Shown: positions 9,084-33,541 of the stretch, one piece after another
Layout of the letters: the number at the start of each line of letters is the position of its first letter
Numbering within the stretch: the stretch's first letter is position 1
From: Nanobdellota archaeon
GTDB taxonomy: Archaea; Nanobdellota; Nanobdellia; Pacearchaeales; GW2011-AR1
Assembly (NCBI GenBank): GCA_030640395.1
Contig: DAOWJK010000011.1
Location: 1-38,390 of the forward strand
Direction of reading: 5' to 3'
DNA: 38,390 bases
Translations under genes and position numbers: made by a program
The notes under the pieces: generated by a model
Databases searched by the model: none
What the model saw: the letters and a program-made list of their open reading frames with translations, nothing else
Told to the model about the DNA's origin: nothing

Positions 9084-9697
9084 ATCTTCTCCTTCAACTT
9101 CCCAATCTTCCTCCAACTCTTCTTCAACTTCTTATTACTTTCTTTAACAATTATCTTCAAAAATTTATCATCAACTAGAATTTTATTTTTTTCAATAATT
9201 GGAAACTCTAATTTTTCTGTACTATTCAATTCAGCAACAAATCTATTTCTCGTCGCTATTATCCCGGACCTCTTCCAACCAGCCAACTTTGCTTTATTTA
9301 AAAAAGATTGAGCATCATCCAAACTATCACAAGCAACATGTAAAATACAAGGTTCAGATTTAAATTTTATGCCCTTAGTAAACATTTTCTGGGAAAATGT
9401 TTCGGGGTACACACGAAGTGTGTTTATTCTTTTTTCCTTTTTAACAATCTCATTCAAATCCTTTTTCAACTTATTAAAACTAATCATCTCATGATAAACT
9501 TTCAAAAACAAACCTTTTTCTTTTTTATCCTGATTAATCATTAAAACAATCCTTCCAGAACACGAAGAAGTCGTGTAAAAATTCTCAAGAGAATTTATCT
9601 TCTTACATAAAGAAATTATTTTTTCATCCCATTTCTTTTTAGAAGATTTATCTAATTTAGAAAGAATAGATTTTTTTCGTTGAAGGAAATTATTCAT
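9080..9697 (-). CDS. taw3: tRNA wybutosine/wyosine-synthesizing protein 3 (Taw3/TYW3 methyltransferase)
   Basis: 205 aa. N-terminal F..RK..IL..LD.S.K...DE.I..L...IN....FYTTSSCSGRI is the TYW3 signature. Carries an in-frame element copy. Confidence 0.75.
   Translation of the reverse strand: MNNFLQRKKSILSKLDKSSKKKWDEKIISLCKKINSLENFYTTSSCSGRIVLMINQDKKEKGLFLKVYHEMISFNKLKKDLNEIVKKEKRINTLRVYPETFSQKMFTKGIKFKSEPCILHVACDSLDDAQSFLNKAKLAGWKRSGIIATRNRFVAELNSTEKLEFPIIEKNKILVDDKFLKIIVKESNKKLKKSWRKIGKLKEKI
9370..9423 (-). repeat. in-frame two-hairpin element, copy 1 (in taw3)
   Basis: + strand: TGCCCTTAGT-AAACATTTT-ctggg-AAAATGTTT-CGGGGTAC-ACACAC-gaa-GTGTGT. Stems at 9380-9388/9394-9402 and 9409-9414/9418-9423. 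Translated as NTLRVYPETFSQKMFTKG. Confidence 0.75.
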
Positions 9698-11990: not shown

Positions 11991-12707
11991 CTATTCTTTC
12001 TCCAAAATTTTACAATTAATATTTTCTTCTTCACACAACTCACAAAATTCCCTGGCATCATCCTCGCTTCCAACAATACTCCCCCAGTGCATTGGAATCG
12101 CCAAATCAGGTTTAATCAACTTCGCAGCCTCAACAGCTTCCTCTGCACTCATTGTGAACCTGCCCCCAATAGGCAGCAAAGCAACCAATTTCCTGCCCTG
12201 CTGTTTATAACCTGTAAGCTTTTGCATCTCAGGAATAACATCTGTGTCCCCTGCATGATAAATAAGAACACTATTTATTTTTATGAGATATCCTACCCAA
12301 CCCTCTTCCTTAGGATGAAAATGCTTGTCAATATTATACGCCGGCAAAACAGAAATCTTCGTGTTCCCAAAAACCAACTCATGCCCTGGCTCAACAACCT
12401 CCAGCTTAATCAGCACATCAAACCGCACAATCTTGCTCTGGCAATCAGCAGTCAAAAAAATTTTTGTCCCTTCTTTAATAATTTTCTTAATGTCAGCAAC
12501 ACTGCAATGGTCATAATGGCTGTGAGTTATTAAAATCAAATCTGCCTTCTCAGAATCATCTTTGATATTATAAGGGTCAATATAAATCACCTTGCCCTTA
12601 GTAGAAATCTTCATAGAAGATTTATCGGGGTACGCCTGTGGTGTTGAATTCTTGATCAAAAATCCTGCATGCCCTAACCATTTAAGTTCAATATCATTTA
12701 TTTTCAT
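11991..12707 (-). CDS. metallo-beta-lactamase fold hydrolase (UPF0173-like)
   Basis: 238 aa. LKWLGHAGFLI, ITHSHYDH (HxHxDH) and IPMHWG motifs. Carries an in-frame element copy near the N-terminus. Confidence 0.8.
   Translation of the reverse strand: MKINDIELKWLGHAGFLIKNSTPQAYPDKSSMKISTKGKVIYIDPYNIKDDSEKADLILITHSHYDHCSVADIKKIIKEGTKIFLTADCQSKIVRFDVLIKLEVVEPGHELVFGNTKISVLPAYNIDKHFHPKEEGWVGYLIKINSVLIYHAGDTDVIPEMQKLTGYKQQGRKLVALLPIGGRFTMSAEEAVEAAKLIKPDLAIPMHWGSIVGSEDDAREFCELCEEENINCKILEKE
12592..12645 (-). repeat. in-frame two-hairpin element, copy 2 (in MBL hydrolase)
   Basis: + strand: TTGCCCTTAGTAG-AAATCTTC-atag-GAAGATTT-ATCGGGGTAC-GCC-tgt-GGTGT. Inner stem at 12605-12612/12617-12624. Translated as STPQAYPDKSSMKISTKG, inserted between LIKN and KVIYIDP. 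Confidence 0.7.
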
Positions 12708-12798: not shown

Positions 12799-13083
12799 AT
12801 GAAATCACTTGAAGATTTTAAGATAGAGTGTCCAGCATCATGGAAAGGGTTTGGACCAGGATGGAGGACAGTAGCAGTTATTTATTTTTTTGATAATGAT
12901 GGGAGAGGTTTAAGTAAGAAAGAGTTAAGTGAAAAAATAGAATTAAATGACGATGAATTAAAGAGAGGATTAGGAGCGATGCAACAAACAAATGAAATAT
13001 TATTTAGAGAAAATGCCACTGGAAGAAGATATTATTTAGAACCTAAAACAAGAGAAGCATTTAAAGGACTTTATAATCTTTAA
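12799..13083 (+). CDS. hypothetical protein
   Basis: 94-aa ORF; possibly winged-helix-like. No firm motif. Confidence 0.35.
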   Translation: MKSLEDFKIECPASWKGFGPGWRTVAVIYFFDNDGRGLSKKELSEKIELNDDELKRGLGAMQQTNEILFRENATGRRYYLEPKTREAFKGLYNL

Positions 13084-13112
13084 TTATTCAAGACTATTTT
13101 TTTCCCACTCAG

Positions 13113-13778: not shown

Positions 13779-13927
13779 ATAAATTTTTAATTTATAAATC
13801 TTTTTACTCAGGGGCTCTGTTAAAAAAGTTCTTAGAGAAAAGTAAATAATCCCTGAAAACCACTCTTTAAAACTAAAAAAAGAAAAACTAAAAAAATCTT
13901 TGATAAAAAAACATTTATAATCTTTAA

Positions 13928-14428
13928 TTATTCAAAACTATTTTTTTCCCACTCCCCCATCTTCCCAGTTTTCAACTTTTTATCCAAAATCTCCAACTCT
14001 TCATAAATCCCTTCAATCAGCTCATAATTTTTTGCCTCTTCCAAACTAACCCATTTATATTCTGTTAAGGCGTGGCAAAGTTTAACATCTTCCCCAACTG
14101 GCTCTGCCCACAAACTAATTATTAACGAAGGAATATTATCTGAACGAATATAAACCAAACTCGTAACATAATTAAGATTTTTAATCTCCAATCCAACTTC
14201 TTCCATGACCTCTCTTTTGCTCAAATCCTCTAAAACATTATACCAGTGAGAAGAAGTGTCTTTTTCCCTTAAAGCATAATCCAAAACTTCCAACTTGCCC
14301 CCAGGCACAGTCCATTTTCCAGGAAATGCTTTTTCATAATCCGCCCTTTTCGCAATTAAAAATTTTCCGTCCTTAACTAAAATCACAGTAGAAGTAATAT
14401 AATGTGCTTGATTTTTATCGTATTTCAT
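13928..14428 (-). CDS. NUDIX hydrolase
   Basis: 166 aa. Nudix box elements GGKLE ... REVMEEVGLEI, with a longer than usual spacer between the GG and RE parts. Confidence 0.7.
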   Translation of the reverse strand: MKYDKNQAHYITSTVILVKDGKFLIAKRADYEKAFPGKWTVPGGKLEVLDYALREKDTSSHWYNVLEDLSKREVMEEVGLEIKNLNYVTSLVYIRSDNIPSLIISLWAEPVGEDVKLCHALTEYKWVSLEEAKNYELIEGIYEELEILDKKLKTGKMGEWEKNSFE

Positions 14429-14469: not shown

Positions 14470-15879
14470 TTACTGCAACTTCTCAACTGCCTTCGCAATC
14501 CTCAACATCTTTTCATCTTCAAACTTGTCACAAGCAACCTGCATCCCAACAGGAATTCCATCAATCTTTCCAATCGGCAAACTCAGCGCACAATTCCCAT
14601 ACAAATTATAAGGAATAGTTAAAGCATCATAAGCATACATATCCTCAACAGAAATACTCTCGCCAATCTTATGCGGCAGCTTCGGACAAACAGGAGAAAT
14701 AATGCAATCAACCTTTTCAAAAGCTTTTGCCAACTCTTTAGAAAAAAACTCCTTTGCAATCAAAGACTTATGATAATATCTTCCATGATGCTCTGCCTTG
14801 GAAATTTCACTCCCTCCTAAAATTCTTCTCATAACTTCTGGACCGCAAGCATCCTCAATTTTCTTCCCATACCTCCTGCCATCCAGTCTCCGGGTTGCAG
14901 AAAAAAACTCAACATAAACCAAAGGATAATAAGTCGCAACAGCCAACTCAAAATTAGAAATCTTTATCTTCCTAATCTCCCACCCATATTTTTCGCTGGC
15001 TTTTTTAATTCTCTCCCCAATCAAATCATCAATTCTCTTATCCCGAGACTCAAAATCCAAAACACCAACAACTAACTTCCTAGGAACTTTATTCAAGTTC
15101 TTCAAATCAATTTTCTTGCCCCGTAATGCAGCCTCGTCAGAGGTTCTCGTGCCCTCTTTGGGTATACTTTGGGGTACACCAGGCGGTGTGCTTTCCTGAG
15201 AAATAGAATCTTTCTCATCTTTGCCATAAATCACACTTAACAACAAACCAGCATCTAAAACATTTTTTGCAATAGGTCCAATCTGATCTAAACTCATAGA
15301 AAGATCAATTAAACCATAACGAGAAACAGATGAATAAGTTGGCTTCACTCCAACAACTCCGCAGTGCGACGCAGGATTTCTTATGCTCCCTCCAGTGTCA
15401 GAACCCAAAGCCATGTCGCAAAAACCCGCAGCCACAGCAGCCACACTACCCGACGACGAACCTCCAGGAACAAAACCAAAAGCAGCAGGATTTTTCGTCG
15501 CACCAAAAGCACTTGTCTCACCAGAACTCCCGCACGCAAACTCATCACAATTTGCCATTCCCAAAATAATCCCTCCCTGGTCTTTAATCTTCTTAATCAC
15601 AGTTGCATCATAACCTGCCTTATAATTCTCCAAAACTTTAGAACCACACGAAGCATGCAAACCCTTAACATTAATATTTGCCTTCACAGCAATAACTTTC
15701 CCGGCAAGTTTTGCCCCAGCATTCAGTACTTTGGGGTACACCGAGCGGTGCCCAGATTTATTTTTTTTCGCTTCTTGCAAAGCATTTGGATTCATTTCTA
15801 AAATCGCATTTATTTTTTTCCCTTTTTTATTATTTGCTTCAATTTCTTTCAAGTAGTTTTTTAGTTTTTCTGTGTTCAT
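14470..15879 (-). CDS. gatA: Asp-tRNA(Asn)/Glu-tRNA(Gln) amidotransferase subunit A
   Basis: 469 aa. Amidase signature GGSSSGSVAAVAAG...GSDTGGSIRNPASHCGVVGVKPTY..VSRYGLI...SLDQIGP. Carries two in-frame element copies. Confidence 0.9.
   Translation of the reverse strand: MNTEKLKNYLKEIEANNKKGKKINAILEMNPNALQEAKKNKSGHRSVYPKVLNAGAKLAGKVIAVKANINVKGLHASCGSKVLENYKAGYDATVIKKIKDQGGIILGMANCDEFACGSSGETSAFGATKNPAAFGFVPGGSSSGSVAAVAAGFCDMALGSDTGGSIRNPASHCGVVGVKPTYSSVSRYGLIDLSMSLDQIGPIAKNVLDAGLLLSVIYGKDEKDSISQESTPPGVPQSIPKEGTRTSDEAALRGKKIDLKNLNKVPRKLVVGVLDFESRDKRIDDLIGERIKKASEKYGWEIRKIKISNFELAVATYYPLVYVEFFSATRRLDGRRYGKKIEDACGPEVMRRILGGSEISKAEHHGRYYHKSLIAKEFFSKELAKAFEKVDCIISPVCPKLPHKIGESISVEDMYAYDALTIPYNLYGNCALSLPIGKIDGIPVGMQVACDKFEDEKMLRIAKAVEKLQ
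15116..15191 (-). repeat. in-frame two-hairpin element, copy 3 (gatA, long variant with nested extra hairpin)
   Basis: + strand: TTGCCCCGTAAT-[GCAGCCTCGTCAGAGGTTCTCGTGCCCTCTTTGGGTA]-TACTTTGGGGTACACC-aggc-GGTGTGC. The ends match copy 7 exactly; the bracketed stretch of about 36 nt is extra. Translated as STPPGVPQSIPKEGTRTSDEAALRGK. Confidence 0.75.
15711..15752 (-). repeat. in-frame two-hairpin element, copy 4 (gatA N-terminal region)
   Basis: + strand: TTGCCCCAGCATTCAGTACTTTGGGGTACACC-gagc-GGTGCC. 22/24 identity to the 24-mer core of copies 3 and 7. Read in a different frame: GHRSVYPKVLNAG. Confidence 0.7.
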
Positions 15880-21560: not shown

Positions 21561-23036
21561 TCATTCCAAAAACCTCTTTATAATCCCCATCGCCTCTCTC
21601 CCATCAACTTTCCCGGCAAACTTCTTCATTACCAATCCCATGTAAGCTTTCTCAGAAAGCCCGGGCTTGCCCTTGATAATTTTCATGATTTTTTCCTCAA
21701 CATTTCCTAAATCTGCTTTTTCAAACTTGACCGCACTGCTAACATCAACTCCCCTGGCAATTCTCTCTAAACTTTCCTTTATCTGCCTCTCGCTAATTTT
21801 CCCTTTTTTATATTTCTCCAAAACAAATGCAAGAATATCTTTGTTGCCCTCTATGTTTATATCTCCTTTCATAGAGGGTACACCCTTGGGTGCTGAAATA
21901 TTTTTAATCTTCCGCGCAATCTCTTTCGGAAATATCAAAACCACTTTCGCAATTAATTTTGGGTTGCTCACAATCTCCAGCAACTCCCTAAACTCCCCAA
22001 GTTTATTCATTTTGAAAATCAACTTTATCATCTCATGATTTAATCCCTTGCTGCTCAGTTCCTCTTCAATATCTTTTCTCAATCTGGGAAGATTCTTCTT
22101 AACTTTATTAATTAAATCTCTGGAAATCCTCAGCATCGGTAAATCAGTTTCAGGATACATCCTCGCTGAACCAGGCAGAGGTCTCAAAAAACTCGTGGTT
22201 GTGTCAGGATTTCCTCTCCGAACTTCTGCAACAGACTTTTTCTTTTTAACTAAATCAACCTGCCTTTCAATTTCGTTATTAATCGTAGGAACAATTAATT
22301 TTAAATTCTGAACACCTTTCATCTCAATTCTCTTCCCATTCTTAATAGAAATACTAACATCCTGCCGAATCGTGCCAATTCCCCGACGAACTCTGCAACT
22401 TCTCAAAATCTCCCCAATCTTCAGGCTGACATTCCTGGCCTGTTCAGGAGTTTTAATATCCGGAGCAGTCACAATTTCAACAAGAGGAATCCCCAACCTG
22501 TCCAGCCGATAAATTGTTTCGTCATCTTTTCGCTCCACAATCCTCGCAGCATCTTCCTCAAGAATCACGGCATTAATTCCAACTCTTCCTTCATCTGTCT
22601 CAACATAGCCATCCTGCGCAATTAAAACAGTCCTCTGAAAACCCGAAGTATTTGAACCATCAATAACAGTTTTTCTCATAATTTGTGTTATCGGAACAAT
22701 CTTGCAATTCAGCAAAAGCGAAATCTGCAAGGCAATCTCCAGCGCATCCTTATTTATCTCATGCGGCGGCTCCTCATCCAACTCAACAAGACAAGTTGTA
22801 TCATACCCCTGATAAACAAATTGCTTATCTTTTCCCATCTCATGTTTCGCCGCAACATCAACCTCTCCAGACTCTCCTGCAACAGCATGAAGTTTTCTCC
22901 TCACAATAAAATCAGGCTCGTCTTTCCTTAACAGCGACAGACAATTACAAAATAATTTTTTAGTGTCAAGTTGCTGATGAATCTCAAGCCCGCATTTAAA
23001 TCCTAATTTTTCGTAATCTAATTTTTCTTTTGACAT
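21561..23036 (-). CDS. gatE: Glu-tRNA(Gln) amidotransferase subunit E
   Basis: 491 aa. N-terminus LGFKCGLEIHQQLDTKKLFCNC, plus VDGSNTSGFQRT and RQDVSISI motifs of GatE. Shorter than typical GatE. Carries an in-frame element copy. Confidence 0.85.
   Translation of the reverse strand: MSKEKLDYEKLGFKCGLEIHQQLDTKKLFCNCLSLLRKDEPDFIVRRKLHAVAGESGEVDVAAKHEMGKDKQFVYQGYDTTCLVELDEEPPHEINKDALEIALQISLLLNCKIVPITQIMRKTVIDGSNTSGFQRTVLIAQDGYVETDEGRVGINAVILEEDAARIVERKDDETIYRLDRLGIPLVEIVTAPDIKTPEQARNVSLKIGEILRSCRVRRGIGTIRQDVSISIKNGKRIEMKGVQNLKLIVPTINNEIERQVDLVKKKKSVAEVRRGNPDTTTSFLRPLPGSARMYPETDLPMLRISRDLINKVKKNLPRLRKDIEEELSSKGLNHEMIKLIFKMNKLGEFRELLEIVSNPKLIAKVVLIFPKEIARKIKNISAPKGVPSMKGDINIEGNKDILAFVLEKYKKGKISERQIKESLERIARGVDVSSAVKFEKADLGNVEEKIMKIIKGKPGLSEKAYMGLVMKKFAGKVDGREAMGIIKRFLE
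21844..21893 (-). repeat. in-frame two-hairpin element, copy 5 (in gatE)
   Basis: + strand: TTG-CCCTCTATG-tttatatctccttt-CATAGAGGG-TACACCC-tt-GGGTGC. 9-bp stem at 21847-21855/21870-21878. 48/50 identical to copy 6. Translated as APKGVPSMKGDINIEGN. Confidence 0.8.
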
Positions 23037-24943: not shown

Positions 24944-26221
24944 TCACATCTCCAACCTATCACTCAACTCTCCAGCAAAATTTTCTAACATTTTTTCTCT
25001 AACAATTTTTTTATCCTTTGCCCAGTCTGCGTGACCCAAAACCCAGCCAAGTTTTATCAAGGCTGTTTCACTTAACATATCCTCTAAATAAATAATTCCT
25101 GTTTTCATCAGCTCTCTTCCATTAGAATAAACCAACGGGTCAAGCCGCCCATAAATTGTCTGGGCAGCAGCGCAAACAACCAAACCTTTTTCCTGAACCT
25201 GTTTAAGTTTTTTTATCCAGCTATTTCTTGCACGTTTTGTCGGAGCATGTCCAAGACCACTCATCTCCAAAACAATGCCCCTGTATTTTTTCTTCAAATA
25301 AAAATCCAAAATATCCGGCTCTTGCCCGGGATAAATCTTAACCAAAGCAACTTTCTCCTCAAACTTTAAATCCAGCTTAACTTTCTTGCCTTTAGTTGTA
25401 CGAATATTATAATCTGAAATTTTATCAATTCTTTCAGGAAAAATTTTAGCAAAAGGTTTTGCATTTACAACTTTAAAAGCGTCTCTTTTTGAAGTATGCA
25501 TTTTCCTGACTTTTGTTCCGGGCATTGCATAACAAAAATCATCATTTGAAGACCCATGCCCAACAAGCATGACTTCTGCAATATCTGAAATCGCGGCCAA
25601 CGCAGCACACTGCAAATTCAAATTCGCGTCGCTGCTTGCCCTGTCAATACTTCTCTGAGAATAAGTCAAAACAACCGGCTTGTTCAAATTCTCCAAAAAA
25701 AAACTCAACGCCGCAGAAGTATAATGCAAAAAATCAGTTCCATGCGTGACAATCACTCCTTTAATGCTCGGCTCATTCAAAAGTTTCTTAGCACTTCGGG
25801 CAAGTTTCTGCCAGTCCTTGAAATCCATGTCCTCTGACGCTTTCATAAACGGCACCTCAACTTTCACAATATTAACTTTGCCAAAAACACCTGGATAAAA
25901 CTTAAACAAACTCTCAGGAGTATCAAGCCAGTCAACACCTCCTTTCTTCGGATTCAGCCGGGCAGCAATTGTCCCCCCAGTAATAATCATCGCAACATTC
26001 GGTTTATTTTTATCTTTTTTTATCTCAATTTCTTCTTTCTTCTCTAAACCTTTTTCAACAACCTTAATCTCCAAAACATCTTTTTTATTAAATCCAATAT
26101 TATAACCAGAATCCAGTTTAAGCAAAATAATTCCGGGTTCAGGGTTTTCTAAAAGAACTCCCTCATAAATCTGCCTTGTTAAATGAACTCCAACATAATC
26201 CCCGGCAACAGCATTTTTCAT
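24944..26221 (-). CDS. gatD: Glu-tRNA(Gln) amidotransferase subunit D
   Basis: 425 aa. N-terminal AD domain, then asparaginase-type motifs ITGGTIA and VTHGTD. Confidence 0.9.
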   Translation of the reverse strand: MKNAVAGDYVGVHLTRQIYEGVLLENPEPGIILLKLDSGYNIGFNKKDVLEIKVVEKGLEKKEEIEIKKDKNKPNVAMIITGGTIAARLNPKKGGVDWLDTPESLFKFYPGVFGKVNIVKVEVPFMKASEDMDFKDWQKLARSAKKLLNEPSIKGVIVTHGTDFLHYTSAALSFFLENLNKPVVLTYSQRSIDRASSDANLNLQCAALAAISDIAEVMLVGHGSSNDDFCYAMPGTKVRKMHTSKRDAFKVVNAKPFAKIFPERIDKISDYNIRTTKGKKVKLDLKFEEKVALVKIYPGQEPDILDFYLKKKYRGIVLEMSGLGHAPTKRARNSWIKKLKQVQEKGLVVCAAAQTIYGRLDPLVYSNGRELMKTGIIYLEDMLSETALIKLGWVLGHADWAKDKKIVREKMLENFAGELSDRLEM

Positions 26222-26757: not shown

Positions 26758-28113
26758 ATGACAAAAATTGGATTAGAAATTCATGGTTATCTTTTAACAA
26801 ATGAAAAACTCTTCTGTGCTTGCAAATCAGAACACGGGCTAAAACATTCAAAACCGAACACAAATATCTGTGCTATTTGCACAGCCCAGCCAGGGGCAAA
26901 GCCAATGCTCCCAAATAAAACAGCCGTAAATAAAGTAATCCAAATTGCGTTAATTCTTGGATGCAAAATAAACGAAAAACTTGTATGGGCCAGGAAACAT
27001 TATGACTGGCCTGACCTGCCAAAAGGATATCAAAACACAATTTCTGGAGCTTATGCAATTCCTGTCGGAGAAAAAGGAAAATTTTTAGGAATACGAATTA
27101 CCGAGGCGCATCTTGAAGAAGACCCTGCAGCATGGAACCCAAAAACAGGGGAAATAGATTACAATCGTTCCGGAAGCCCTTTAATAGAAATTGTAACAGA
27201 ACCAGATTTTAAAAATTCCGAACAAGTAATTTCATGGCTAAAACAATTGCTCACAACTCTAAGTTACATAAAAGCCATTGACAAAAATCTGGGAATAAAA
27301 GCAGATGTAAATGTCTCTGTTTCAGGAGGAGCAAGAATTGAGATTAAAAACATAAACAGTCTGAAAAACATCAAAACAGCAATTGAATATGAGCTCCAAA
27401 AACAAAAAAAACAGCTTCCTAAAGTTCAGGAAACAAAAATGTTTGATGAAAGCAAAGCCATTACAATAAAAATGCGTTCAAAAGAACAAGCCCAGGATTA
27501 CAGATTTATTTCAGACCCGGACTTGCCGATAATAAAAATTGAAAAATCAAGAGTAGAAAAAATAAAATCTGCTTTGCCCGAAACTCCGTCAGAAAAACTA
27601 AAAAAGATTGTTAAAAAATATAAAATAGAAAAAACTTCAGCAGAAACTTTAACAAAAAAATTAGAAATTGTGGAGTTCTTTGAAAAAATAATTGAAAAAG
27701 CAAATCCAAAACTTGCAGTTCGTTGGGTAACTGAAGAACTTCTTAGTGTCCTGAATTACAACAAAAAAGAATTAGAAGATGTTGAAATAAAACCAGAACA
27801 TTTTATTGAATTGCTCAAACTTATAGAAGATAAAACAATTACAGAACTAAAAGCAAAAGATATTTTACGAAGCTGGAAAGAGAAATCACTTTCCCCAAAA
27901 CAAGAAATAAAAAAATTTTCTCAAATTTCAGACAAAAAAGAAATTCAAAAACTTGCTCAAAAAGTTATTAAAGAAAATTCAAAAGCAGTTGAAGATTACA
28001 AGTCAGGGAAAAAACAATCTTTGAATTTCTTAATTGGACAGGTAATGAGAGCAAGTGATAAGAGGGCTGATTTTGAAATGGCGAGAGATGTTTTGGTTAA
28101 AGAATTGGAATAA
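26758..28113 (+). CDS. gatB: Asp-tRNA(Asn)/Glu-tRNA(Gln) amidotransferase subunit B
   Basis: 451 aa. GLEIHGYL, PNTNICAICTAQPGAKP, EAHLEEDP and NRSG.PLIEIVTEPD motifs of GatB. C-terminal YqeY-like tail (LIGQVM). Confidence 0.9.
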   Translation: MTKIGLEIHGYLLTNEKLFCACKSEHGLKHSKPNTNICAICTAQPGAKPMLPNKTAVNKVIQIALILGCKINEKLVWARKHYDWPDLPKGYQNTISGAYAIPVGEKGKFLGIRITEAHLEEDPAAWNPKTGEIDYNRSGSPLIEIVTEPDFKNSEQVISWLKQLLTTLSYIKAIDKNLGIKADVNVSVSGGARIEIKNINSLKNIKTAIEYELQKQKKQLPKVQETKMFDESKAITIKMRSKEQAQDYRFISDPDLPIIKIEKSRVEKIKSALPETPSEKLKKIVKKYKIEKTSAETLTKKLEIVEFFEKIIEKANPKLAVRWVTEELLSVLNYNKKELEDVEIKPEHFIELLKLIEDKTITELKAKDILRSWKEKSLSPKQEIKKFSQISDKKEIQKLAQKVIKENSKAVEDYKSGKKQSLNFLIGQVMRASDKRADFEMARDVLVKELE

Positions 28114-28268: not shown

Positions 28269-29252
28269 TTAATTAGCAGTGCATTGACAATCTTGATAAC
28301 TATCAGACTTGGCTGATCCAATTAGCCCTGCAGGGCCCATACTCGCAGTACCGCAAATCAGAGATTCTTCGCACGAATTTACATATTTTGTAAAATGTTG
28401 TGTTTTAAAACAAATTACACCATATTCATTCCAAATAGTACGATATTGCCCGCCCGGAGATGTAAATTCGCCAAATGGTCCTGACATAGAATACCAATCA
28501 GTGCTACAAGCACCATAATGATGTGATACATAATTTATTCTCGCGTAGTATTGTCCATTTTCAAATTTTCCACTAAATGATCCTGACACAGGATATGAAC
28601 CCGCTCCTATACAAGAACAACTTATTATGCATGGTTGAATATTACAACTCTGCGACTCTGTAGAAGAGCCAGAGCAAGTTGCTCCCCCGCATTCTGGAGC
28701 AGGATTTGTACAGGTTCTTGTTCTTGTTTGAGTTCCACCGCCACACGAAACAGAACAAGCACTCCAGCCAGACCATGCACTCCATCCTCCATCTACAGGA
28801 ACACAACCAAACTCCCCTCCATTAATTGCATCTTGTAAACTCATTTCAGAACCGTCTACAGAAATTAAAATCTCGTCTGCACTATGCCCAAAAACTATAT
28901 TAGAATTATATGAGGATGAAACACTTCCGTATAACGAAGAATCAATTGCCTGTTGCAAATTCATCTCATTGCCATTAACAGAAACATAAATATCATTTCC
29001 AGTATGATAAGCTCCTGAAATTTCTGTTGTGTAGTCCTGTGTTGGAGATGGAGCACCCTCAACAAGAAAACCATTATCTATTGCCTCCTGCAAAGTCATT
29101 GTAAAACCATCTACAGAAACCAAAACAGCGTCGCATCCATGCCCGGGATTTGGAATTTGTTGAGTATATTCATATGCAATAATAATGCCCACTATTAACA
29201 AAACTACCGCTATTGAAATAAAAATTATTTTATTAGAAAATTTATTCACCAT
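28269..29252 (-). CDS. secreted protein with three short tandem repeats and one thrombospondin type 1 (TSP1/TSR) repeat
   Basis: 327 aa. N-terminal TM/signal segment. Three VS(V)DG.(E)M.LQ.AI repeats. Then [52 protein letters not shown], the canonical WSxW...CSxxCGxGxxxRxRxC TSR pattern. Visibly higher G+C than its neighbours. Confidence 0.7.
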
Positions 29253-32407: not shown

Positions 32408-33541
32408 TCATAATCCCTTTTTGCCCTCTATGTTTATATCTCCTCTCATAGAGGGTACATCCTTGGGTGCCCTCTTCCCAACCAACTCAACAAACCTCTC
32501 CTTAAATTTCTCCAAATCCTTAACCTTGACTCTAACACCAACAGCCCTCTCATGCCCCCCGCCAGTCGCCCCTTCCAAATCCTTAATCACTTCCAAAACA
32601 ATTTCCCTGACATTATCTCCTCTGACAGAAATATTCACCTTGTCTCCTGAAACATAAATCACAACAATAATCTTCCCAGGAAATTCATACCTCAGCCCAT
32701 TTGACAAATCAGAACTAATGCTCAGCTCTCCTCCATACTGAAAAAACAAAACCCCCCCCTCATTTTTCTGGGACTTCGCCTTCTCCAGCAATTTTTCATA
32801 TTTCTCATTTATCTCTTTAAATTTTTTATACATAGTCTGGTTATATTTGCTCTCTTCCAAAACCTCATAAGGCGTCCTGACCTTCATCAAAAACTTCAAC
32901 ATATTTACCACATTAGTTGTTCTGTCTTTTAATCCCGCATTAAAAATTCTCCCAATCTTCCCTATCTGAGATTTAAAATAAATCTCTTTAACATTTTTAG
33001 AATCAATAATCAAGTCAGGATATTTTTCTTTAAACTCAAAATAAAAATCAGGAACAAAATGATCAGAAATGCACCCAACAACTGCTATCCACAAATCCTG
33101 TTTTCTGTTAGTTATCTGATAACACAAAGCTGTAACAGGTTCATTTGTTTTCTCTTTATTTAACAGAGGATTATAATAATTAACAAAATCAGGAATATCG
33201 CTATTCTCATGATGGTCAATCCACACCACCGGAAGATTAACCTGCCGAACCTCTTTCAAAAATTCCTCAGAAACAACATGCCTGTCCAAAATAAAAATAT
33301 AATCTGCATTTAGTTCCATGACTTTTTTAAAATAATTTCCCGCGTCCGCAGACTTCATCGCAACACCTTTTCCCCTTCCAATATATCTCTGCAGCAAAAG
33401 AAAACTACAAAGCCCGTCCCCGTCATTATCAAAAAAGAAAATCGGATTCTGTGCTTTTTCCAAATGCTCCTGAACTTCTAAAATTTGTTTTTGAGTTAGC
33501 ATTTTAATTAAAAGCAAATGTGATTTAAAAACCTTCAACAA
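32408..33541 (-). CDS. DHH/DHHA1 family phosphoesterase (RecJ-like)
   Basis: 377 aa. DNDGDG, IFILD, WIDHH and GGGHERAVG motifs. The last 20 or so residues are encoded by an element copy. Confidence 0.75.
   Translation of the reverse strand: MLKVFKSHLLLIKMLTQKQILEVQEHLEKAQNPIFFFDNDGDGLCSFLLLQRYIGRGKGVAMKSADAGNYFKKVMELNADYIFILDRHVVSEEFLKEVRQVNLPVVWIDHHENSDIPDFVNYYNPLLNKEKTNEPVTALCYQITNRKQDLWIAVVGCISDHFVPDFYFEFKEKYPDLIIDSKNVKEIYFKSQIGKIGRIFNAGLKDRTTNVVNMLKFLMKVRTPYEVLEESKYNQTMYKKFKEINEKYEKLLEKAKSQKNEGGVLFFQYGGELSISSDLSNGLRYEFPGKIIVVIYVSGDKVNISVRGDNVREIVLEVIKDLEGATGGGHERAVGVRVKVKDLEKFKERFVELVGKRAPKDVPSMRGDINIEGKKGL
32421..32470 (-). repeat. in-frame two-hairpin element, copy 6 (forms the C-terminus of the DHH protein)
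   Basis: + strand: TTG-CCCTCTATG-tttatatctcctct-CATAGAGGG-TACATCC-tt-GGGTGC. Stem at 32424-32432/32447-32455. Translated as APKDVPSMRGDINIEGK, followed only by KGL and the stop codon. Confidence 0.8.

Follow-up and report, generated by a model that had tools for sequence, protein, structure and literature searches.

Short in-frame hairpin elements, probably selfish, in housekeeping genes of an ultra-small DPANN archaeon

Two nearly identical 50-nt sequences, one in gatE and one at the 3' end of a gene for a DHH/DHHA1 phosphoesterase, occur in a 38,390-nt stretch of DNA (the window; contig DAOWJK010000011.1, assembly GCA_030640395.1) from a Nanobdellota archaeon. Both are probably copies of a selfish element, non-autonomous and spreading by copy-and-paste, that lies in frame in housekeeping genes, in the manner of Rickettsia palindromic elements (RPEs) and repetitive extragenic palindromic sequences (REPs). 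Members of the family have entered many unrelated housekeeping genes, and species differ in the sites occupied; insertions relative to related genomes, preserved reading frames, covarying stems, footprints of loss and a patchy distribution are all found. We infer that the hairpins would be the feature that the copying machinery requires, which would explain why pairing is conserved rather than sequence or peptide, and that the mobilising enzyme would act in trans. Selection on the host proteins would purge copies inserted antisense, into another frame or within a structured region, and the element would persist only where a protein tolerates a hydrophilic, in-frame loop.

The genome under study, here G000 (536 kb in 56 contigs numbered C1, C13, C41 and so on; Pacearchaeota/Woesearchaeota), was compared with three congeneric genomes, G001-G003. 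Subfamilies of the element are designated A, B, C and D, with several singletons, labels coined in this analysis; they are separated by the loop of the first hairpin and by the entire second hairpin.

The repeat pair and its family

The 50-mer matches the plus strand at two places, 21844-21893 without a difference and 32421-32470 with two mismatches, and no match appeared in 100 dinucleotide-preserving shuffles of the sequence, in agreement with the first-pass annotation, which had singled out the pair. Its description of abrupt ends also holds: similarity ceases within 1-3 nt of either end, with unrelated sequence on each side. Both copies sit on the minus strand, which is the coding strand of the host genes, and the peptide that the annotation had seen shared by otherwise unrelated proteins is encoded as APKGVPSMKGDINIEG in GatE and as APKDVPSMRGDINIEG in the DHH/DHHA1 protein. 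The two genes and their copies are as follows.

21561..23036, minus strand: gatE host gene, 491 aa (Pfam GatB_N, 2.7e-58; PDB GatE 1zq1, 9.6e-102)
21845..21893, minus strand: A-type copy in gatE, sense sequence GCACCCAAGGGTGTACCCTCTATGAAAGGAGATATAAACATAGAGGGCA, encoding A382-G397; site empty in G001-G003
32408..33541, minus strand: DHH/DHHA1 phosphoesterase host gene; gene call on record 364 aa
32422..32470, minus strand: A-type copy, two differences from that in gatE, at the 3' end of the DHH/DHHA1 gene; compared with G001 and G003, 48 nt cleanly inserted

Across the element junctions, gatE reads ...NISAPKGVPSMK..., and in the DHH protein the copy forms residues 358-373 of 377, followed by KKGL and the stop codon. 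On the sense strand the gatE copy is predicted to fold into a 5-bp hairpin, GCACC-CAAG-GGTGT, with a 9-bp hairpin directly after it (-20 kcal/mol, z -3.95); the DHH copy folds at -14.1 kcal/mol, one of its two differences disrupting the small 5' hairpin.

A repeat scan of the window revealed five more sites of the same layout beside the pair, and a fuzzy search for the 5' module in the whole G000 assembly gave 40 matches, 38 of which are real copies. The sense consensus consists of RCACC, a loop of 3-4 nt, GGYGTACCC(C), a variable hairpin clamped by CCC/GGG, and GGGCA. The unit can thus be described as a small invariant hairpin (CACC-loop-GGTG), a TA linker and a GC-clamped variable hairpin (CCC...GGG) with a terminal CA. 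It opens with RCA and closes with GCA, and its boundaries are therefore ambiguous by 3 nt. The elements range from 30 to 90 nt, and the length from RCACC to GGGCA is 3n+1, corresponding to a 3n core, in 29 of 33 strictly delimited copies. Composites exist, in which one module is nested in the loop of another or inserted between GTACC and GTACCC, and 5' modules and hairpins re-assort across subfamilies, the CAAG-loop module being combined with C-type hairpins at C7, C32 and C23. A third copy of the sub-lineage to which the pair belongs, at C1:2724, has the stem TATG/CATA, differs from the gatE copy by 1 nt and stands in place of a variable loop of 12-21 nt in the congeners. The five further sites in the window are the following.

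9370..9421, minus strand: C-type copy in the TYW3 gene; G001 and G003 have a copy at this site, their stems differing by compensatory changes, and G002 has none
12593..12644, minus strand: C-type copy in a metallo-beta-lactamase-fold gene; in G002 a 30-nt version, and in G001 a composite of ~190 nt, occupies the same site
15117..15189, minus strand: composite B-type copy in gatA with a 72-nt core, a second module being nested in the hairpin loop; site empty in G002
15712..15751, minus strand: B-type copy in gatA whose reading frame differs (GHRSVYPKVLNAGA); G002 has a copy at the same site, with a 6-nt deletion in the loop
33707..33746, minus strand: B-type copy in a gene for a pyridoxal phosphate-dependent decarboxylase; site empty in G003, with different composites in G001 and G002

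B- and C-type units are read in two frames across different genes, as illustrated by APPGVPQSTELRG versus GHRSVYPKVLNAGA; since several frames are used, the conserved unit is a DNA or RNA sequence and not a peptide. The A-type copies of the four genomes are all read (27 of 27) in one of two open frames, a restriction that shows the peptides to be strongly filtered.

In the hairpins, pairing rather than sequence is conserved. In 19 A-type copies from the four genomes, 95.9% of the stem cells pair, and five pairs have double-sided changes, amounting to 18 cells, a result with no counterpart in 500 shuffles or in any slid control. Between the orthologous copies in the TYW3 gene of G000, G001 and G003, two base pairs differ in a compensated way, G001 having the U-G intermediate.

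GatE was the sole protein modelled. In the AlphaFold2 model (53 sequences, mean predicted local distance difference test score, pLDDT, of 82.7), the element, A382-G397, is placed in coil between confident helices 359-378 and 399-410, with pLDDT below 50 for residues 380-394. The model is consistent with the element forming a tolerated surface loop. The same inter-helix loop is occupied by a C-type unit, in another frame, in two unrelated GatE lineages (P0008 and P0010), and TPQAYPEKSSTKIFTKG, a member of the family at another position, follows GatE residue ~170 in G002 and in a further GatE sequence, P0007.

A second family of in-frame hairpins, with the core TCGTCCG(N)...CGAACGA, is present in G000 contigs C3, C26, C46 and C53 and encodes, for example, TSTSSAKDAERK or TSTSPAENVEQEK. 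The RNase P RNA of G003 has ~50 nt extra relative to that of G002 (~1650-1710 of the locus), and this segment carries the TCGTCCG...CGAACGA core in the RNA-sense orientation; it was rejected as a member of the RCACC...GGGCA family and belongs to this different hairpin family.

Empty and filled sites across genomes

The gatE site is empty in G001-G003, which, together with 48 of 53 orthologues, hold a segment of 24-25 residues (..SxEKxxxIL..) where G000 has 34 residues. The 16-codon element stands in place of eight ancestral codons (FEKIEKIL in G002). Genomes that encode relatives of this GatE are labelled Candidatus Pacearchaeota, Woesearchaeota or Nanoarchaeota. At the DHH locus, the C-termini read ...EKR-EDGL* in G001, ...EKR-DN* in G003 and ...GKR-[16 aa]-KKGL* in G000, which amounts to a clean 48-nt insertion, and the element is absent from this C-terminus in 119 of the 119 other closest homologues from a collection of 5.8 billion proteins.

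The first-pass annotation had interpreted the likeness of the pair as recent mobilisation or gene conversion. Copying to new sites is borne out and, because the gatE and DHH sites are empty in relatives, gene conversion between two old copies is unlikely for this pair. Its dating survives in part. The gatE copy is identical in 49 of 49 nt at the same site in GCA_048634455.1, whose gatE is 89.8% identical overall, and the insertion is therefore older than the split from that genome and younger than the split from G002 (84% nucleotide identity). From these sequence comparisons, "recent" for the gatE copy would mean after the split from the next species and not the present day. Between the gatE genes of G000 and GCA_048634455.1 (210-1676), identity varies from 0.73 to 1.0 along the gene and is 100% over a block of ~150 nt that surrounds the element; this block may be a recombination tract.

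When the flanks of 29 other G000 copies were joined and compared with G001-G003, many further insertions specific to G000 emerged, and the clean ones relative to congeners, each of a whole number of codons, now comprise those in DHH (48 nt), gatA (72), C23 (C23:4108; 39), C15 (54), C41 (33, with flanks 96% identical to G002), C5 (48), C19 (39) and C3 (48). Neither a target-site duplication (TSD), for which the first-pass annotation had proposed to compare empty sites, nor a terminal inverted repeat (TIR) is present at the clean empty/filled pairs, and the element ends, RCACC... and ...GGGCA, are not inverted. Loss is documented as well: 9 nt are left behind as a footprint at the C32 site of G002 (ACAAGGGGC), a remnant that a deletion between two ACA repeats could have produced. 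In sister species, many of the sites stand empty without any trace of replacement, and at least six orthologous sites (in the metallo-beta-lactamase-fold and decarboxylase genes and at C13:2831, C23:4108, C32 and C1:698) carry different subfamilies in different species within identical boundaries.

Beyond the genus the family is scattered. The 13-base motif CACC-N4-GGTGTACCC occurs 19 times in G000, and G001-G003 are rich in copies; among other sampled genomes of the same family, the motif was detected in 6 of 75 in one sample and 15 of 150 in another, and it was absent from all 45 genomes that represent other families in the order. A viral reservoir was considered and rejected, as a 14-base motif gave 110 single matches in 2.9 million viral contigs, a number at or below chance by our estimate of database size.

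Orientation, mobilisation and rival explanations

All 38 copies in G000 lie within long sense open reading frames (ORFs), with no intergenic copy, in a genome of which ~82% is covered by ATG-to-stop ORFs of at least 100 aa. Some 27 copies checked in 20 sampled loci of G001-G003 are likewise all in sense orientation and in frame. The copy at C23:859 also overlaps a 628-aa antisense frame, but its actual location is the N-terminus of a cbf5-like gene, and the true start of glmS is farther downstream. On C13 and C49, where copies only 2-2.3 kb apart point in opposite directions, each is in sense with the gene that holds it; orientation is thus tied to the gene, not the replichore, and replication-strand bias was rejected as its cause. 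Stop codons were rejected as well, since open frames are about equally frequent in antisense (69 of 99) and in sense (70 of 99). The antisense peptides are more hydrophobic, with a mean Kyte-Doolittle hydropathy of +0.07 versus -0.76 for the sense peptides, and selection at the peptide level could possibly underlie the sense orientation, all 27 A-type copies being in one of two open frames.

The first-pass annotation had remarked that no transposase is encoded next to either copy. No transposase-like gene adjoins either of them, and any mobilising activity would therefore act in trans. Among trans-acting enzymes, for which it had pointed to TnpA-like or REP-associated tyrosine transposase (RAYT)-like HUH proteins and to Cas1, the genome search returned one IS200/IS605 TnpA, with no RAYT, no TnpB and no Cas1, and the TnpA could not be tied to the element. 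Matches to the profile PF01797 number one per genome in G000-G003. That of G000 (C16:47-454), at the contig start, is an intact 135-aa IS200/IS605 TnpA with HUH and Tyr motifs, for which the NCBIfam IS200 equivalog model gives 107 bits and the RAYT model 23.5 bits, the latter against a cutoff of 80. Its orthologue in G003 carries an in-frame TGA, the match in G001 is partial with an in-frame TAA, and that of G002 represents a different lineage. No element copies were found in the flanks of the IS200 TnpA, and of the four genomes G001 and G003 encode a reverse transcriptase and the other two do not. The IS200-like element itself (C16:1-511) is 88% identical over 512 nt to its G003 copy, with different neighbours in the two genomes, and its 3' hairpin is CCTCGCCC-TTCA-GGGCGGGG. 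Considered as the mobiliser, the IS200 TnpA does not co-occur convincingly with the family and has ends unlike those of the element.

Several observations weigh against the selfish-element interpretation. An exclusively sense orientation (100%) with 0 of 38 copies intergenic is unusual for a MITE (a miniature transposable element with inverted repeats) or a REP, the antisense frames being equally open. Some junctions are imprecise; gatE has lost eight codons, and both adjacent codons are changed at C41. The ends of the resident insertion sequence (IS), including the 3' hairpin, are unlike those of the element. Genes for single-tyrosine (Y1) transposases are present in 6 of 15 motif-positive versus 41 of 135 motif-negative genera, so that their presence does not convincingly track the element; genomes G103, G204 and G211 hold 4-7 copies and no Y1 gene, and G150, G153, G167 and G232 carry the same TnpA lineage and zero copies. 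Finally, translation of the copies into Pro/Gly-rich hydrophilic loops of 11-30 residues is suggested by frame conservation only.

As to how the copies move, a single-strand-DNA HUH/Y1 transposase such as the resident TnpA would offer, if only weakly, the best mechanistic fit among the candidates. In the corresponding scheme, an IS200/IS605-type Y1 HUH enzyme would mobilise the element as single-stranded DNA, in the manner of REP/RAYT systems or of palindrome-associated transposable elements (PATEs), into the displaced non-template strand of transcribed genes, which would account for a sense-only, gene-only distribution. The lack of TSD and TIR, the subterminal hairpins, the strand specificity and the GTAC tag at the foot of the main hairpin are features expected of such a process. 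The occurrence of one PF01797 match in each genome of the genus, intact in G000, the Y1 gene in six of nine multi-copy genera against a background of ~29%, and an orientation that tracks the gene and not the contig strand also fit. Nevertheless, the copies have no conserved target tetranucleotide on their 5' side, the IS ends are unrelated to the element, the transposase copies of G003 and G001 contain in-frame stops, and the three genera with copies and no Y1 gene and the four with the same TnpA lineage and no element are counter-examples in both directions. Moreover, the frame bias of the A-type copies cannot stem from a DNA enzyme, and selection, evidently strong, could explain the orientation too. 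We therefore regard this scheme as tentative and, on balance, doubtful.

The swapped subfamilies raise another possibility, that there is no dedicated transposase and that the elements spread or are exchanged by ectopic gene conversion or templated break repair, with other copies as donors. The replacement of subfamilies within identical boundaries at six or more orthologous sites, the re-assortment of 5' modules and hairpins, and junctions at which flanking codons are lost or changed would all be natural outcomes. However, new copies at sites empty in all relatives (DHH, C15 and C41) need insertion without flanking homology, and the shared ends extend over only ~17 nt and 5 nt. The re-use of sites and the shuffling of modules can be explained by conversion or templated repair, the first arrival at empty sites cannot, and as a full account of the family this mechanism is unlikely.

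About equally unlikely, in our estimate, is that integration is coupled to gene expression, with entry restricted to the sense strand of transcribed DNA, either as single-stranded DNA in the transcription bubble via an HUH-type enzyme or through an RNA intermediate, or that the sense hairpins are functional in mRNA. If true, expression-coupled integration or a function in mRNA would define a new class of transcript-targeted parasite of coding sequences in Archaea, as opposed to a repeat that inserts at random and is then filtered by selection.

A further explanation holds that the elements are kept for what they do in place, rather than just tolerated, as mRNA hairpin signals for stability, pausing or protein binding, or as useful surface loops. 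It draws on the hairpin pairing conserved over four species, on the sense-only orientation and on the TYW3 copies of G000, G001 and G003, which differ by compensatory stem changes with a U-G intermediate on the sense strand, although swapping with other copies could mimic compensation in place. A maintained function is difficult to reconcile with the stem-breaking change in the DHH copy, with the many sister-species sites that are empty and have no replacement, with peptides that vary with the frame and with deletion footprints that indicate ready loss, and we consider this explanation improbable.

Removal at the RNA level, whereby archaeal endonuclease-spliced mini-introns or ribosome-bypassed segments would leave the proteins unaltered, could accommodate copies that occur only in sense and only in transcribed DNA, that have structured ends and variable interiors and that keep their position while the sequence turns over, like archaeal tRNA introns, but it is very improbable: no bulge-helix-bulge (BHB) structure can be drawn from two simple hairpins with at most one bulge (a single 3-nt bulge in the B-type), the copies are 3n and stop-free in the host frame although ~30% of frames hold stops, which efficient removal would not demand, and a hop from RCA to GCA spans 3n+1 nt and would shift the frame. 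The BHB intron was accordingly rejected on the plain hairpins and the 3n, stop-free copies, and ribosomal bypass on the continuous downstream frame, which the hop would break, and on the lack of stops.

Related systems and neighbouring genes

The selfish-element reading finds close parallels in RPEs, which are also multi-copy palindromes lying in frame in unrelated housekeeping genes of reduced, AT-rich genomes, with no adjacent transposase, and add, when translated, further peptide segments that the protein fold can accommodate (Ogata et al. 2000, as summarised in PMC10969869). RPEs, however, are ~100-150 nt long, are about half intergenic and reside in Rickettsia, whereas the elements described here are 30-90 nt long and entirely intragenic and sense, in an archaeal host; each RPE family also encodes one conserved peptide, whereas the same unit is read here in two or three frames and has a modular build of two hairpins (PMC10969869). 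The archaeal elements may be called RPE-like by placement, hairpins and fold-compatible insertion, a likeness of layout and not of sequence homology to RPE-1 to RPE-10.

REPs share with them the short GC-rich stem-loops, a tetranucleotide at the foot of the stem and the lack of TIR and TSD (PMC3733652). REPs are thought to be moved as single-stranded DNA by a Y1 HUH enzyme, and some of them, RPE-4 and RPE-6 included, are intragenic and add 20-30 residues to the host protein; between transposase genes and repeat families the correlation is reported to be poor (PMC3733652). REPs are palindromes of 20-40 nt whose tag is GTAG or CGTC, whereas here it is GTAC within GGYGTACCC, and REPs are mainly extragenic, often form inverted dimers and accompany a RAYT gene that they usually flank, whereas no RAYT is present here. 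The strand specificity, the subterminal hairpins, the lack of TSD and TIR and the intact TnpA in the genome recall IS200/IS605 elements and PATEs, from which the family differs in having no fixed 5' target of 4-5 nt, no TnpB and ends unlike those of the resident IS. A MITE requires terminal inverted repeats and a TSD, and the element has neither.

The GC clusters and byps of yeast mitochondria are likewise GC-rich hairpins in genes; byps are skipped by the ribosome and bear stops, whereas the elements here are 3n and stop-free, with the downstream frame kept. Palindromes in the coding sequences of nematomorph mitochondria (PMC6649704) offer a further example of GC-rich hairpin elements invading the protein genes of compact, AT-rich genomes. 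Archaeal BHB introns of tRNA, rRNA and cbf5 mRNA are similar in being short, structured, sense-only inserts that occupy the same position with unrelated sequence, but the elements lack the BHB motif (two 3-nt bulges and a 4-bp helix) and always preserve the frame. In full-text literature searches, no description of such elements in DPANN archaea came up.

On the selfish-element reading, the family is an archaeal counterpart, in an ultra-small DPANN archaeon, of the "selfish DNA in protein-coding genes" of Rickettsia. Selfish DNA would then be tolerated, and still acquired, in the essential translation genes gatE, gatA, TYW3 and cbf5 of some of the smallest archaeal genomes, providing a route to lineage-specific loops and to fast evolution of protein length in DPANN archaea. 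Such inserts can confound orthologue alignments, phylogenetic markers based on indels, and gene calling in DPANN metagenome assemblies. To our knowledge, the mode of movement of in-frame palindromic elements is still unknown in any organism, and a tiny family with many empty/filled pairs is well suited to learning how RPEs and intragenic REPs move.

Homologues of a GatA-like amidase (14470-15879), GatE (21561-23036), GatD (24944-26221) and GatB (26758-28113) lie within 14 kb of the window, and parts of both tRNA amidotransferase systems are therefore present; the window also contains genes for AspRS and ProRS. Residues 4-268 and 270-490 of GatE (491 aa) align to chain positions 6-271 and 409-627 of the Pyrococcus enzyme (1zq1), the gap indicating that GatE here lacks the inserted domain of ~135 residues of the latter. 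A 41-nt AT-rich direct repeat, TTTATAATCTTTAATTATTCAAGACTATTTTTTTCCCACTC, unrelated to the hairpin family, occurs at 13070-13110 and 13914-13954, the copies being 844 nt apart and 98% identical. At 28269-29252, the window encodes a 327-aa protein with a thrombospondin type 1 repeat (PF00090, 1.7e-12, residues 158-208), a domain unusual in an archaeon.

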